This document shows positions 2,127 through 38,552 of a stretch of DNA of 43,215 nucleotides, in pieces. A program made the translations under genes and the position numbers. The first letter of the stretch is position 1. Each line of letters starts with the position of its first letter. The stretch is from a virus. The DNA lies in UHGV virus genome UHGV-0324072, one strand, 5' to 3'. Below the pieces are notes generated by a model that was not told where the DNA came from, made no database searches, and was given only the letters and a program-made list of their open reading frames with translations.

Positions 2127-4361
2127 CTATTCCAAATCCTCCTCTGTCACCACCAGCATCTCATTTGGTTCGTATAGTGTCTTCGGCCTTAATCTATCCC
2201 CTATTCTTTCGGGTATACGATATGTTCTCGGTACTACTTCGCCGTTAGCATCGCAACCAAGCATTAGTTCTCCATCTTTCAACATTTTATCAAGATGGGT
2301 GTTAGTCACAGAGAAGTCACCGGAACGAGCCACTATCTGCTGCTGAGTAAAACCGCGACCTGTGTCATCTGACTGTTGCAGGTCTTCCAGTGCCGAAAGT
2401 ATTGACTCCTTCCTTACTTCATCCCTGCCGCGTTTAACTTCTTCCTTTACTTTTTGCTTACCTTCTTTCGTCAACCCTTCTTCCCGCTCTTTCTCCTCGT
2501 CAGTTTTGAACGGCTCGAAACCCCACGGCATCAACACAAGCGCCTTGTGTGGTTCAGGAAGGTCCAGGTTTACGATTGTGCCGTATTCTTCTGTGCCCCC
2601 CAGGAACTCAACCGCACGGTACTCTTTCGGCGGCGGAGCTTCGCGGAACTGCACAGACTCCAGCACCATGCCAACCGTTTTCTGTTGAGGACCGTGCTTA
2701 AATTTCGAGTGGTATACGTTTATTTGACGGTCGGTTGCACGTTCGATTGTCAGTTCCACGTCAACACCCGCATACAGCGCCCCACTGCCGCGTGCTTTCT
2801 TTCCGCCCTTCTGCGTATGGTGGACAACGCCTACTGCGGCTTTAGTTGCATCGCGTACTTCTTTCAGAATGGCGATAACTTTACCCATGCCGATTGCTGT
2901 TGATGAACTGTTCTCGTCGAACTTATCAATCGTCAGTGCCAGGGTCTGGTTAAGGGTGTCGAACGCAACCATGCCAATTGGCTCGTCGCCAGCAGTTTCG
3001 CGCATTAACTTAATCAGGCTTTTAAGTTTGCCGACTTCGCCCATATCGATGACGTGTACATAATCTTTACCTTCCCCGCCATATTTAGCCGCTAGTGCAT
3101 CAATACGGGTGCGTGTAGCTGCGCCACCCTCACCATCAATATAGAAATGGTGGCAACGCTGGGTATCCGCCCCCGCAAACCTGTACCCGGCGGCGCTGAG
3201 GTACATCATCCCCAGCGTATAGAACGATTTGTACGTGCCAGATTCCCCGACGATATCCCAGATACAATCCGACGGCATGTACCCCTCAACGACGAAATCA
3301 GCCTTTACCGGCTCCGGTAACTCGTCCCCCTCTGAGTCCTCCTCTGAGTCCTCGTCGTCTTCCAGGTCGTCGAGGCTGCAAGTTACTGGGTCCTCGTTCT
3401 CTGTGCGGTGTAGTTCTTCAATCTCTTCTTCCGGTAAATCAGGCAGAGCCGCACGAATGCTGTTAATGCTGATAGGTTGCTTGTCTACGTTAAGCTCGTC
3501 TGGCAGGCCGCACATACGCAGGGCCAAATGCTGTCGGCGGTTAAGCTCGGTGCAAGCGCCGTTGTTTGTATGCTGGCAGACAAAGCGCACTTCTTTACCG
3601 TCGAGCATTATGCTGGTGGAGCCCTTGCCTGTATGCAGATGTTCGTTAGGGCATGGCACTTCGTACCCGCGCCCGGAAGATAAAGCGTCAAGGCCAAGCT
3701 CGGCTTCGCAGAAGTGTGCTATATCCGCGTTAAGCCCATGCTCATCAGCGGCAAGTGTTTTAGCCTCACGCTTACGCAACCCCATCTCTTCGGCTTTCTT
3801 GATGTACCGCTCGGCACGGATAACACGCCCTTCTGTAACCGTTATCTTCGACTCTTTGTGCGGCAGGTAGATAAGGCGGTTGCCATCTTCCGTGCAGTGG
3901 TCGCGCAACGCTTCGTCTATTTCTAACTCTGCACAAATAGCACGTTGCACCATCCACGCGTCGTTAGAGTTAAACGGCGTGCGAGCTGGAACCAGAACGC
4001 GGAAAGCGTAATCTCCGTTTTTACACACATGCTGATGCGATGCCGTTGTATGCAGAATATTGAAGAACGGTGCGTTCTTGAATTTGCGGGTAAGGTCGCG
4101 GTACTGAGTACGGTTGAGATGGTCAAAATCGAACTTAACCACACTGTCTTCCAGAATAGCGTTCTTACGGCGACCGCCAACAGGCGCAATAGCTTTCTGT
4201 TTAATCTTGGCCGCGTCGTACTCTTCCTTAGTCCATGACGGGTCCACGGATAAACGCTTCGATGTATCGCAGACATACTCCACAAACTGCTCGAGCGGCA
4301 TCTCACGCGCTACAGGGTTTTTATCGAATGTGTTACGCAGCGTTGCAAAAACAATATTCAT
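2127..4361 (-). CDS. DNA primase/helicase fusion (N-terminal primase-polymerase-like region, C-terminal RecA-fold replicative helicase)
   Basis: 744-aa ORF; Walker A-like GESGTYKSF, RecA/DnaB-like helicase segment; Cys/His-rich zinc-binding-like central region; C-terminus VVTEEDLE. Confidence 0.7.
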   Translation of the reverse strand: MNIVFATLRNTFDKNPVAREMPLEQFVEYVCDTSKRLSVDPSWTKEEYDAAKIKQKAIAPVGGRRKNAILEDSVVKFDFDHLNRTQYRDLTRKFKNAPFFNILHTTASHQHVCKNGDYAFRVLVPARTPFNSNDAWMVQRAICAELEIDEALRDHCTEDGNRLIYLPHKESKITVTEGRVIRAERYIKKAEEMGLRKREAKTLAADEHGLNADIAHFCEAELGLDALSSGRGYEVPCPNEHLHTGKGSTSIMLDGKEVRFVCQHTNNGACTELNRRQHLALRMCGLPDELNVDKQPISINSIRAALPDLPEEEIEELHRTENEDPVTCSLDDLEDDEDSEEDSEGDELPEPVKADFVVEGYMPSDCIWDIVGESGTYKSFYTLGMMYLSAAGYRFAGADTQRCHHFYIDGEGGAATRTRIDALAAKYGGEGKDYVHVIDMGEVGKLKSLIKLMRETAGDEPIGMVAFDTLNQTLALTIDKFDENSSSTAIGMGKVIAILKEVRDATKAAVGVVHHTQKGGKKARGSGALYAGVDVELTIERATDRQINVYHSKFKHGPQQKTVGMVLESVQFREAPPPKEYRAVEFLGGTEEYGTIVNLDLPEPHKALVLMPWGFEPFKTDEEKEREEGLTKEGKQKVKEEVKRGRDEVRKESILSALEDLQQSDDTGRGFTQQQIVARSGDFSVTNTHLDKMLKDGELMLGCDANGEVVPRTYRIPERIGDRLRPKTLYEPNEMLVVTEEDLE
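2130..2147. repeat. 18-bp exact repeat TTCCAAATCCTCCTCTGT (second copy 42550..42567), encoding C-terminal TEEDLE of two replication proteins
   Basis: identical nucleotide strings at both gene 3' ends. Confidence 0.8.
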
Positions 4362-4486
4362 TTCTTTTTCTCCGCACGTTCTAAGGCTTCCTGCATACGG
4401 CGCATTGCGCGGTTCATCTTTACCGGTGCGAAGAAGTCAGCGCCGTGTTTCTGGCGGCGTAGCTGTGGAACTATTAACTTTGTCAT
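4358..4486 (-). CDS. small basic protein (42 aa) translationally coupled to primase/helicase start
   Basis: ATG at 4486 with AAGGA RBS; stop overlaps primase ATG (ATGA); below the 60-aa track cutoff. Confidence 0.35.
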   Translation of the reverse strand: MTKLIVPQLRRQKHGADFFAPVKMNRAMRRMQEALERAEKKK

Positions 4487-4526
4487 TGTATAATCCTTAT
4501 GCTTACTTTGATGATTTGTACTTTAG

Positions 4527-4558
4527 CCCCGACGTTCTGGCGTTGGGGTTTCTTTTTA
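4527..4558 (+). terminator. plus-strand hairpin plus T-run inside a minus-strand gene block
   Basis: CCCCGACG-ttctgg-CGTTGGGG then TTTCTTTTT; T-run only on plus strand. Confidence 0.3.
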
Positions 4559-4846
4559 CCGTTTAGCCAACCCTTCCAGCAAATTTTTATACTCTTCAAA
4601 ATATTCCTCGACCAAATCATCGCCGAAATAGAAGTCGATATACTCGAGATTATCTCTTACGTTAAGCGATGCCGACATGGTGCTTAGTTGGCGTAAGCTA
4701 ATTAGCTTCATTTCTGTTTCTACGCAGAAAGGCCGGTAGGTATCAAGATGGCAAGAGATATTGAAGCATAAAGCGAACTCTCCGGCCACGGAGTGAACCA
4801 TATACACTTCGTTTTCTGCTTTATTGTGGAAAATTACGCCTTTCAT
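4556..4846 (-). CDS. hypothetical protein (96 aa), coupled to AlpA-like regulator gene
   Basis: ORF track; ATG 4846 overlaps stop of upstream gene (ATGA). Confidence 0.5.
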   Translation of the reverse strand: MKGVIFHNKAENEVYMVHSVAGEFALCFNISCHLDTYRPFCVETEMKLISLRQLSTMSASLNVRDNLEYIDFYFGDDLVEEYFEEYKNLLEGLAKR

Positions 4847-5025
4847 TTCACGTTCTCCTTAATCCATGCTTCGACTTTATTACGGTCAAATGTTCCCGGT
4901 AAACGGCGGCCCATAACCTTAATACAGCAGTCAGGGAATTTGCCGCTGCGCAACCAGTTATTAATGGTCTGACGTGTCACCCCGATACGCTCGGCTACCT
5001 CATTCTGTGTCATGTAATGTTGCAT
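4843..5025 (-). CDS. AlpA/excisionase-family HTH DNA-binding protein (60 aa)
   Basis: ATG at 5025 (RBS AGGGGA); MTQNEVAERIGVTRQTINNWLRSGKFP typical AlpA-type HTH; track start is an upstream alternative codon. Confidence 0.55.
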   Translation of the reverse strand: MQHYMTQNEVAERIGVTRQTINNWLRSGKFPDCCIKVMGRRLPGTFDRNKVEAWIKENVK

Positions 5026-36344: not shown

Positions 36345-37765
36345 TTCTTACCTCGTCTCTTCATGTAGTTAAGCAACTCTTCCTGTACCGATTTCTTCTC
36401 GTCGGTACGCGCGGCAACAACCTCGTCCAGCGTGTCTTTAGCGACTATGTGATAAAGGAACACCGGGCGCTCGTGCCCAGCTTGTTTCTGGCGAACAGGG
36501 CCGATGCGCTCGACAACCTGCAAATAGTGCTCAAGATTCCAGCCTTGTGAAATAAACGCCAGATGATGGCCGCCGTCCTGTAAATTCAAACCATGCCCGG
36601 CTGACGCAGGGTGTACGCATAAGATTTCTATTTCGCCGCGGTTCCACGCTTCCATCTGCTTATTACCCTTCGCGCCTTTGGAAAACGCCTGCGCCTGTGG
36701 GAATCGCTTAAGGATGCGCTCAAGTTCGTGCTTGAACTGATAGGCGACCAGCAACGGCGCGCCCTGCAACTCCTCCACAATTGACTCCAGCGCATCCAGT
36801 TTCGTATCGTGCACTTTCTCCCAGTCTTTCGTTGCTTCTCCGTCTGGTCCGGATACATACACGGCACCGGATGCAATCTGCAAACACTTCGACGTCTTCG
36901 CCGCCGCGTTAGCCGCTTCGACTTCCCCGCTCTCCAGTTCCGCAAATAACTTCTCCTCCATATCTATGTACGCCTGACGCGCTTTCTTCGGCAGGTCGAT
37001 TTCAACAGGTACGATAACCGGCGCTTCGCATCCGAACCACTCAGCGGCGTCAATCGTGAGACTGATGTCCTTCATCTTCTGGTGGATTTCAGTATCCGCA
37101 CCCGGGCGGGCGTGGTATTCGCGCGCCATAGCAGATTTGCCTTTCTGCACCGAGTTAAACCAGCGGTCGGTGAATGCCGTGTACGAAGAACCGAGGCGCT
37201 CGCCCGCGTCGATAAACCAGTTCTGTCCCCACAAGTCCTTGAGGCCGTTAGGCGATGGTGTACCTGTCAGGTTGATAAAACGCTTAACCTTTCCGAACGC
37301 CACTCTACTAAGCGCCTTCGCCCGCTTGCTGCCGCCTGAACGGCTGCGGAATGACTTCAGTTTCGTGCTTTCATCGGCAACGATAACGGTAAAAGGCCAG
37401 TCGTCTTTGCCGTAGTAGTCAATCAACCACTCTATTACCTCATAGTTCGTGCACACCACGTTAGCGTCCGACTCCAGCGCCGCGATGCGGCGCTTCTCTG
37501 AACCGGTCGCGTCTACGACACGCAGACATGGGAAATTCCACTTAGTTTGTTCCGCCGGCCATGTGCCTGATGCAACGCGCAACGGGGCGAGGATTAACAC
37601 GCGGTCCTCTTCTGTAAGCTGCCCGTTGCGGAACAGTCGGTTTAATGTCCACAGTACGCTGCCAGTCTTCCCGGCGCCCATGCTCGCCCAAATATTACAG
37701 CGATGGTGCCGCAACATGAACGAAGTCATTAGCTTCTGGTATTCGCGCCTTTGAAACTTACTCAT
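36341..37765 (-). CDS. SNF2/DEAD-box superfamily II helicase
   Basis: Walker A-like SMGAGKTG, DEAD-like VIVADESTKL, helicase C-terminal domain segment. Confidence 0.75.
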   Translation of the reverse strand: MSKFQRREYQKLMTSFMLRHHRCNIWASMGAGKTGSVLWTLNRLFRNGQLTEEDRVLILAPLRVASGTWPAEQTKWNFPCLRVVDATGSEKRRIAALESDANVVCTNYEVIEWLIDYYGKDDWPFTVIVADESTKLKSFRSRSGGSKRAKALSRVAFGKVKRFINLTGTPSPNGLKDLWGQNWFIDAGERLGSSYTAFTDRWFNSVQKGKSAMAREYHARPGADTEIHQKMKDISLTIDAAEWFGCEAPVIVPVEIDLPKKARQAYIDMEEKLFAELESGEVEAANAAAKTSKCLQIASGAVYVSGPDGEATKDWEKVHDTKLDALESIVEELQGAPLLVAYQFKHELERILKRFPQAQAFSKGAKGNKQMEAWNRGEIEILCVHPASAGHGLNLQDGGHHLAFISQGWNLEHYLQVVERIGPVRQKQAGHERPVFLYHIVAKDTLDEVVAARTDEKKSVQEELLNYMKRRGKK

Positions 37766-38552
37766 TTACGGCCCCCATGAACGCCTTTATAAATTCAGCG
37801 GCTACTTGCGGGACGATAGCATTGCCGTAACCGCGCAATCGTCCCACTCTGGCGGGTACCCCATTAGCCAGCGGGAATGTGCTGGGTTCAACTGGCCTGA
37901 ATTTTCCATCCCGGCATCCGAGCCAGTCAGCATCTGACCAGAACCCGTTAGGCGGATTGGCTGTGTCAGAGATGCCTCTGTTTGCAGATTGTGGCCCCCG
38001 TTCCTGCCCTGATGGCCTGCTCCCGCCGAGTTGTTCGCACACGGTGTTGGCCAGTTGCTGCGCTCCGAAGAACAATCGATTCCTTTTGTGCGGTGCGCCG
38101 ACGCTACAAGCTGGGAGTACGGCAAACCCGACGGCGTAGTCTTCTCTTTCCAGGTGAGTTTGTAAATCGCACATCCACGATTTTGCAATTGCTGCCGCAA
38201 CCTGCTCCCCAAAGATGACTGGAGGGTGGCACTCGCTGATGAGGTCGAGGAGCACAGGTGCGAGGTGTCTCTGGTCGAACTGTCCGAGTTGCTTTCCTGC
38301 CGTGCTAAACGGTTGGCAAGGCGGACTTCCCGTCCATATAGGCGTATCTTCAGAAACTCCCGCAAGTCTGAGCGCGAGAGGCCAGCCGCCGATACCCGCG
38401 AAAAAATGACACTGGGTGAACCCGTCAAGGTCTTCTGGTCTAACTTCGGTAATGCTTCTTTCATCTACAACTCCAAAAGGTATGTGACCCTGTTTTATTA
38501 ATTCACGCAGCCACGCGGCTGCGCCTTTATCCCATTCGTTGTAATAGTTCAT
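37758..38552 (-). CDS. DNA (cytosine-5)-methyltransferase, compact; conserved motifs split between two frames
   Basis: motifs [34 protein letters not shown] and X GNAIVPQV in this frame; motif IX-like [10 protein letters not shown] lies in overlapping ORF 37802..38464. Confidence 0.55.

Follow-up and report, generated by a model that had tools for sequence, protein, structure and literature searches.

Nested same-strand reading frames in a Kagunavirus-like phage genome probably encode a two-polypeptide C5-cytosine DNA methyltransferase

The methyltransferases of the Bacillus phages SPR, phi3T and rho11s are multispecific C5-cytosine enzymes consisting of single chains, in which tandem short recognition modules are placed in frame. 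The locus described here belongs to UHGV virus genome UHGV-0324072 (the window, that is the whole stretch of 43,215 nucleotides analysed) and is composed of two overlapping open reading frames (ORFs) of the minus strand, namely frame A (37758..38552, 264 amino acids, aa) and frame B (37802..38464, 220 aa), the latter nested wholly within the former; A is the proposed alpha subunit, with the core motifs of a C5-cytosine methyltransferase, and B the proposed beta subunit. The closest described system is M.EcoHK31I (YGGCCR), a C5-cytosine methyltransferase of E. coli that is naturally a heterodimer and whose description is credited to Lee, Kam and Shaw (1995); its beta chain is encoded inside the alpha gene in another frame and carries motif IX, while the alpha chain contains motifs I-VIII and X together with the stated recognition domain, and activity needs both chains; the N-terminus of beta is partly dispensable and internal in-frame Met codons are usable as starts (PMC2836561, PMC3404938). 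M.AquI (CYCGRG; Karreman and de Waard 1990) is, in the account given by a later paper, a C5 methyltransferase of two subunits, both needed for activity, in which the split is sequential, with motifs I-VIII and a portion of the enzyme's variable region in alpha and the rest of this region with motifs IX and X in beta (PMC3404938).

The two frames of the window form an unusually clear, conserved same-strand overlapping dual-coding pair, in which openness exceeds expectation and purifying selection acts on each frame, and it is almost certain that both are genuinely coding and selected. In double-stranded DNA phages it is rare for two same-strand frames, both selected, to overlap by more than 200 codons. 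Frame B is in +1 with respect to A because 38552-38464 = 88, the ATG of B lying 88 nt downstream of that of A. A sequence-only reading of the window had described both ORFs, had seen that they stay open across the region and had listed an overprinted, overlapping gene among its options, and all this is borne out by the selection found on both frames and by the stop-codon counts. In particular, shuffling of the A synonymous codons, which preserves the A protein and its codon usage, generates in the window a mean of 6.4 frame-B stops per 220 codons (minimum 2 in 200 shuffles) versus 0 observed, and in 81 loci a mean of 4.3 per locus, again with none observed, so that frame B is kept open in 81/81 loci; the deficit is present in each segment separately. 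The N-terminal part of B should contain about 0.95 stops per locus; over 76 loci 6 were observed, all near the start. In the opposite direction, B-synonymous shuffling of the variable middle predicts 125 A-frame stops in 76 loci, where 0 are observed and frame C has 300.

Selection was mapped by phase spectra, in which the mismatch frequency at each A codon position was measured over 2109 blastn sequence pairs, position 3 of B corresponding to position 1 of A. In the A-only zone (38244..38552), comprising A residues 1-103 with a motif-II-like YYNEWD element and motifs I and IV, the frequencies at positions 1/2/3 are 0.16/0.11/0.53 for residues 1-29 and 0.17/0.14/0.49 for residues 30-103, and B residues 1-74 are unconstrained in sequence and kept stop-free. 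The first dual zone (38067..38243; 0.22/0.14/0.31) superimposes A residues 104-162, with motifs VI-VIII, on B residues 75-133, with the LQSSLxSRL helix and the LTWK..TPSG..LxAS beta hairpin. It is followed by a B-only zone (37938..38066) containing one WPTP module, where A residues 163-205 (0.275/0.13/0.12) are unconserved but kept open, and by a second dual zone (37827..37937; A residues 206-242, 0.23/0.14/0.22), which holds the end of the B C-terminal block including the motif-IX-like segment. In the A-only tail (37758..37826), with motif X, the C-terminus and the stop codon, residues 243-264 give 0.08/0.09/0.41. The frame changes which the sequence-only reading had placed at about 38060 and 37835 fall near the borders of this map, in which the B-only zone begins at 38066 and the second dual zone gives way to A alone after 37827.

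The entropy of third positions in conserved four-fold-degenerate A codons has the same profile, being near maximal in A residues 1-99 (1.4-2.0 bits) and 243-264 (1.4-1.8 bits), much lower at many sites in residues 104-155 (0.2-1.3 bits) and mostly 0-1.3 bits in residues 213-242. Single third positions are nearly fixed in the first dual zone (P110 T in 68/76, A140 C in 61/63), and fixed synonymous sites occur in the second one (V221 T in 62/62, P223 C in 61/61, G231 G in 73/74). In particular, the nucleotides ..CTGGCTAATGGGGTACCC.. are read LANGVP in A and WLMGYP in B, and since the synonymous sites here are fixed both readings are selected. A and B are thereby each unconstrained where the other is constrained, save for the two dual-coded blocks, and the fact that the N-terminal part of B and the middle of A are unconstrained yet free of stops points to two full-length polypeptides.

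The layout was examined in about 160 viral and bacterial loci. The viral set includes 80 diverse loci from a protein scan with frame A (44-73% A identity, guanine-plus-cytosine content (GC) 45-71%), and in 80/80 of them an open +1 frame extends along 76-98% of A (223-322 codons), against only 34-137 open codons in the +2 frame. The bacterial set derives from 381 loci of a frame-B profile scan of bacterial genomes, 80 of which were kept, and is distributed in Alpha-, Beta-, Gamma- and Deltaproteobacteria, Planctomycetes, Bacteroidetes, Acidobacteria, Verrucomicrobia and others; an ORF in the -1 frame spanning B with motif I, PCQ and GNA was present in 70/80 of these loci, found through B alone; the remaining ones lie at contig ends, escape the motif patterns or are decayed copies, of which two belong to insect endosymbionts. 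B without A was never found among the loci examined. Wherever the three motifs could be located (133/133 loci, from independent phages, prophages and metagenomes), the IX-like motif is at +1 and motif X at 0 relative to motif IV. Both ORFs are already annotated in phage fKuEco01, in which B is labelled 'Mte8-like', and in the very distant Xanthomonas phage PhiXhv-5; in the literature the 'Mte8-like' label led no further than a brief mention in a paper on a phage collection. In a Klebsiella Yonseivirus both frames are likewise open (A 468 aa, B 400 aa).

This distribution decides on two options of the sequence-only reading, namely a pseudogene produced by two compensating indels in a once canonical gene and two sequencing or assembly errors. 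One relative, phage SHAK7693, does contain a probable homopolymer indel elsewhere in the gene, but the two-frame layout is open in 80/80 viral and nearly all bacterial-genome relatives and recurs in all the 133 three-motif loci, with both frames intact and selected, which excludes sequencing error and pseudogene alike and leaves such an origin with virtually no probability. The locus is neither an error nor a dead gene but a genuine and probably split enzyme gene, of a kind that is known though rare.

Individual copies deviate from the common arrangement. In those of a Plautia stali symbiont (L142), an Arsenophonus endosymbiont (L164) and a third locus (L160) frame-A continuity or motifs are lost, and these look like true decay, in contrast with the intact pairs elsewhere. 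In SHAK7693 (L002, ~880-900; window ~38395..38402) one extra T in a T-run at motif I swaps the frames, so that the annotated 288-aa methyltransferase begins in frame B and goes on in frame A; the extra T is probably a homopolymer error, and the record has an Autographiviridae/Kayfunavirus taxonomy line, yet its DNA matches Kagunavirus. The same T-run was considered as a slippage site and rejected, the run being not conserved and F50 and F51 being mostly TTC. In some contigs (P0123, P0124) the B ORF has no stop codon and continues into the downstream gene, the products being a B-Dam fusion (PF05869) and a B-DUF2800/PD-(D/E)XK fusion. Inserts that may be mobile insertions are found in the unconstrained N-terminal part of B (P0147, ~190 aa, Cys-rich, weak Stc1 match) and in the second dual-coded block of A, after FRPVEA (P0388, ~150 aa). 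In a 343-aa protein (P0127), A residues 1-93, which carry motifs I and IV, are naturally fused in frame to B-frame sequence (..QFDPGISRQSS..LQSSL..), which implies an indel before motif VI in its contig, perhaps an error or a mutant, with the consequent loss of motifs VI-VIII. At the DNA level, positions 37809..37964 are 82-88% identical to Xanthomonas and Klebsiella phages (L003, L004) otherwise unrelated to the window, an identity expected in this C-terminal block if each codon position is constrained by one or the other frame.

Frame A is recognized as a C5-cytosine methyltransferase by PF00145, with 59.1 bits (cut-off 22), and by hhalign, which aligns it with M.HhaI at 98.4% probability across motifs I-VIII. 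The motifs I, IV, VI, VIII and X named by the sequence-only reading are confirmed: motif I FAGIGG (38385..38402) is aligned to HhaI FAGLGG, motif IV PPCQPFS (38304..38324), with the catalytic Cys, to FPCQAFS, motif VI FGEQV (38199..38213) to FMENV and motif VIII HKRNRLFF (38067..38090) to QKRERIYM, and all four are invariant or nearly so across 40-76 relatives. Motif X (37779..37826) includes the conserved GNAIVPQVA, in which G243 and N244 are invariant, and is aligned by hhalign to HhaI FGNSVVINVL with low significance. The Pfam match covers only A residues 72-163 and profile positions 64-159 of 324, so that the profile finds no target-recognition domain (TRD), motif IX or motif X in A; a TRD and a motif IX between motifs VIII and X were not found in frame A, the Pfam and hhalign alignments both ending after motif VIII, and the PF00145 check proposed with the sequence-only reading thus gives no intact TRD or motif IX in the single 264-aa frame. 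A residues 163-205 show no frame-A selection, and the stretch opposite the B modules is G/R/S/D-rich and unconserved. The 35 residues which in HhaI carry motifs II-III, between I and IV, are missing from the whole A family, and the 12-residue stretch of the YYNEWD element (38511..38546, A residues 3-14) resembles HhaI motif II, YSNEWDKYAQE, but precedes motif I; together these two features look like a permuted S-adenosylmethionine (SAM)-binding element.

Frame B belongs to a very large protein family (one search gave 5129 hits, and the protein library contains, at E<=1e-3, 9648 matching clusters at 50% identity), in whose members no Pfam domains were found and whose architecture is conserved. 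The residues before the conserved part form an S/T/P-rich N-terminus, which is the unselected out-of-frame reading of A motifs I-IV; a block of the type LQSSLxSRLxxxL...GSxxYxLTWKxxxTPxGRxxxxLxASxRRTS comes next and is followed by 1 to 6 or more modules beginning GWPTPxxxD, of which B of the window has a single one (37967..38053). The number and kind of WPTP modules vary even between close Kagunavirus relatives, and distant phages have modules of the same types. The conserved C-terminal block (residues 169-210, 37835..37960) extends from just within the B-only zone into the second dual zone, and the tail after it, TAMPSSRK in the family and TAMLSSRK in the window (ending at 37802), is the unselected out-of-frame reading of A motif X. 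In the AlphaFold2 (AF2) model from a 131-sequence alignment, with a predicted local distance difference test (pLDDT) of 56.5, confidence is limited to a helix (residues 76-95) and a beta hairpin (101-123), whose pLDDT is 72-89; residues 1-73 are predicted to be disordered (pLDDT 40-47 over residues 18-73) and the remainder is of low confidence, and a shallow alignment of 60 sequences gave a pLDDT of 49.8. A disordered N-terminus, a small confident helix-hairpin and a low-confidence rest fit a subunit that folds on a partner.

The resemblance of B to canonical enzymes is concentrated in motif IX. The sequence-only reading had assigned a motif-IX-like sequence to frame B at 37873..37844; the frame was correctly assigned, while these coordinates cover only 10 residues of a segment that in full occupies 37844..37891. 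With hhalign, the sole local match between the B family and the M.HhaI sequence pairs B 191-208 with HhaI 273-290 (KLHPRECARVMGYPDSYK), which is exactly motif IX, at E 0.23. With trimmed alignments B alone scores 18.5 against HhaI (E 0.016), and the B C-terminal block joined to the A tail scores 22.4 (E 0.005), motif IX being provided by B and motif X by A. The assignment of motif IX to B is suggestive and is the better of the two assignments, to B or to A, offered by these profile comparisons.

The two nested genes probably encode one two-polypeptide orphan C5-cytosine DNA methyltransferase of phage. A (alpha, 264 aa) would be the catalytic core with motifs I, IV, VI, VIII and X and would have, at the usual TRD position, about 40 codons of unselected, probably disordered linker. 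B (beta, 220 aa) would be independently translated in the +1 frame from its own GGAG/ATG and would open with about 75 unselected, disordered residues across A motifs I-IV, followed by the helix and beta hairpin, one variable WPTP module and the C-terminal block ending in the motif-IX-like segment. Beta would dock on alpha and supply the small-domain functions, that is motif IX and target recognition, the latter presumably through the WPTP modules, as in M.EcoHK31I, and the putative role of the enzyme is the anti-restriction self-methylation of phage DNA. A bolder version, which is doubtful, is that the nested beta frame is the whole specificity apparatus of a very large methyltransferase family of phages and prophages, a tandem recombining array of WPTP modules, each a recognition unit, in +1 to the frame of the catalytic core, which would make the pair a multispecific two-chain anti-restriction enzyme. 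If so, the number and kind of WPTP modules would set how many sequences are methylated, and M.EcoHK31I would belong to a widespread class, its recognition domain having maybe been assigned to the wrong chain.

Several results weigh against the two-polypeptide enzyme. Relatives of B were found in none of Pfam, NCBIfam and PDB, Foldseek gave no significant fold match of the B model in the PDB, the identity of motif IX in B has weak statistics (single comparisons of profile pairs give E 0.005-0.23) and the position of the B start codon is not conserved among relatives. PF00145 gives 58.5 bits on the A-B-A chimera versus 59.1 bits for A alone, without gain, and does not match the C-terminal fragments, so that Pfam cannot confirm motif IX in B; the chimeras, made for the window phage and a Xanthomonas phage, joined A1-164, B(SNWPTP..PPEW) and A(GRLRGYGNA..). 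Moreover, A has its own C-terminal block with a weaker motif-IX-like stretch (hhalign to HhaI 15.1, E 0.09), and A might consequently be self-sufficient. According to this alternative A is a complete methyltransferase whose C-terminal block provides a degenerate motif IX and a recognition element of minimal size, and B is an independent overprinted protein acting, for example, in DNA binding, regulation or anti-defence. The weak alignment of the A block to HhaI motifs IX-X, the lack of a recognisable family or fold for B, the unimproved Pfam score of the chimera and the extension of the B ORF into a downstream Dam or nuclease gene in some contigs speak for it; it is nevertheless rather unlikely, considering that no frame-A selection is seen from motif VIII to the C-terminal block, which leaves about 20 conserved residues for recognition, that the best similarity of B to canonical enzymes is motif IX, directly upstream of A motif X, with the canonical order kept at the DNA level, that B is never found apart from A and that, as M.EcoHK31I demonstrates, such a beta chain can be essential for activity (PMC2836561).

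The order of the motifs on the DNA, with I-VIII in A, the IX-like one in B and X again in A, is also what a canonical enzyme would need if it were produced by recoding, through a +1 shift leading from A to B once motif VIII is passed and a -1 shift returning to A before motif X, or through a single shift giving an A-B fusion, and the join of B to A gives the best alignment to HhaI motifs IX-X. Against this option, and against the A-B-A chain envisaged in the sequence-only reading, the conserved part of B has 42-104 open codons upstream of it (about 75 in the window) and A is open through the B-selected middle, neither of which would be required, and the transitions are not sharp but consist of two long dual-constrained zones of 59 and 37 codons. 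No conserved slippery site was seen; by eye, no X XXY YYZ heptamer or +1 site is present at the window transitions, and, as synonymous sites vary freely upstream of A residue 100, that part has no conserved shift signal. The sole natural fusion of the A N-terminus to B that was seen (P0127) joins before motif VI and would lack motifs VI-VIII. A single frameshifted chain is unlikely, and recoding in general very improbable. Even less credit, the chance being extremely small, is due to an untranslated B, whose openness and conserved A synonymous sites would derive from an RNA or DNA element or from codon or dinucleotide bias; the low AF2 confidence over most of B agrees with it, but the variability of the middle zone peaks at the third codon position of B, a protein-coding signature, amino-acid modules are conserved and recombine across phyla at GC 45-71%, and the +2 frame is not kept open.

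The window phage is Kagunavirus-like, infects E. coli as host and is 99.8% identical to phage NTEC3 over the region. Frame A belongs to an operon of replication genes, those for VRR-NUC and DNA polymerase A lying upstream and that for an SNF2-type helicase downstream, and is translationally coupled to both neighbours by overlaps: ATGA (38549..38552) joins the stop of an upstream 63-aa ORF to the A start, and ATGAGTAA (37758..37765) joins the A stop to the start of the 474-aa helicase gene. No cognate restriction endonuclease partner is present among these neighbours (the 63-aa ORF, the VRR-NUC nuclease, DNA polymerase A and the SNF2-type helicase), and the methyltransferase is an orphan phage enzyme. 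In PHROGs, A matches phrog_363 over its full length (E 2e-82) and B matches phrog_1008 (E 2e-52) and phrog_31772 (E 3e-21). The likely initiation region of B (38462..38474) is composed of GGAG (38471..38474), a 6-nt spacer and the ATG (38462..38464), immediately preceded by a frame-B stop TAG (38465..38467). In most relatives an ATG with an upstream GGAG or AGGAG occurs at A residues 26-40, in variable position; this arrangement is consistent with an internal independent initiation, without being a proof of it. A conserved B ATG at the A Asp30-Glu31 codons was considered and rejected, the third position of Asp30 being T in 46 and C in 29 sequences.

A different genomic context is offered by the lambdoid prophage of E. 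coli ECCTRSRTH03 (L165 3875..5077), which has an intact 400-aa A ORF and an intact 334-aa B ORF (4002..5006) beside an MT-A70 methylase gene, between exo/bet/gam and xis/int. The Prokaryotic Genome Annotation Pipeline (PGAP) called A as two 'partial' pseudogene fragments and left B unannotated.

Conservation of the arrangement extends to thousands of genes, of phages and prophages, from many bacterial phyla, and frame B is still without a Pfam or NCBIfam family. Annotation pipelines mishandle the pair, usually dropping one frame, or even, as with PGAP, declaring an intact prophage copy a pseudogene, and its recognition matters for the prediction of phage methylomes and of anti-restriction capacity. 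It also provides a natural model of two proteins sharing one DNA, in which, outside the two dual-coded blocks, the disordered parts of each protein coincide with the folded parts of the other. No earlier description of a family-wide overlap was found in the literature searched, the coverage of which was partial, so that this absence is weak evidence; the kind is known from one enzyme, M.EcoHK31I, and the family-wide conservation, the selection map and the modular beta frame appear to be undescribed.

Among the known systems, M.HhaI and Dcm (PF00145) share with frame A the alignable motifs I, IV (PCQ), VI and VIII and the presence of motif X, but A of the window is without an in-frame recognition domain or a clear motif IX and the II-III segment is missing. 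The enzymes of SPR, phi3T and rho11s are similar, by description only, in being orphan C5 enzymes of phages whose modules vary in number and kind between relatives; in contrast, their modules are in the frame of a single chain and those of the window are in the +1 frame. With M.AquI the locus shares the division of a C5 methyltransferase between two polypeptides, the break falling in the variable region; however, motif X of the window is in alpha, in the frame of motifs I-VIII, and beta is nested instead of following, so that M.AquI is a poorer match than M.EcoHK31I. Compared by layout and description only, the latter resembles the window in that B is wholly inside A on the same strand in another frame, in that motifs I, IV, VI, VIII and X belong to alpha, and in that its partly dispensable beta N-terminus parallels the 75 unconstrained residues and the variable start of B; a motif IX in beta may be a further likeness (weak E values of 0.005-0.23 and no Pfam support). 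The differences are that M.EcoHK31I is part of a restriction-modification system, whereas the gene of the window is an orphan in a phage replication module, that its recognition domain is placed in alpha, whereas the window counterpart is selected only in the beta frame and consists of variable WPTP modules, and that beta of the window is nearly as long as alpha (220 vs 264 aa). The comparison suggests that the two-polypeptide design, described once for M.EcoHK31I, is common rather than an oddity.

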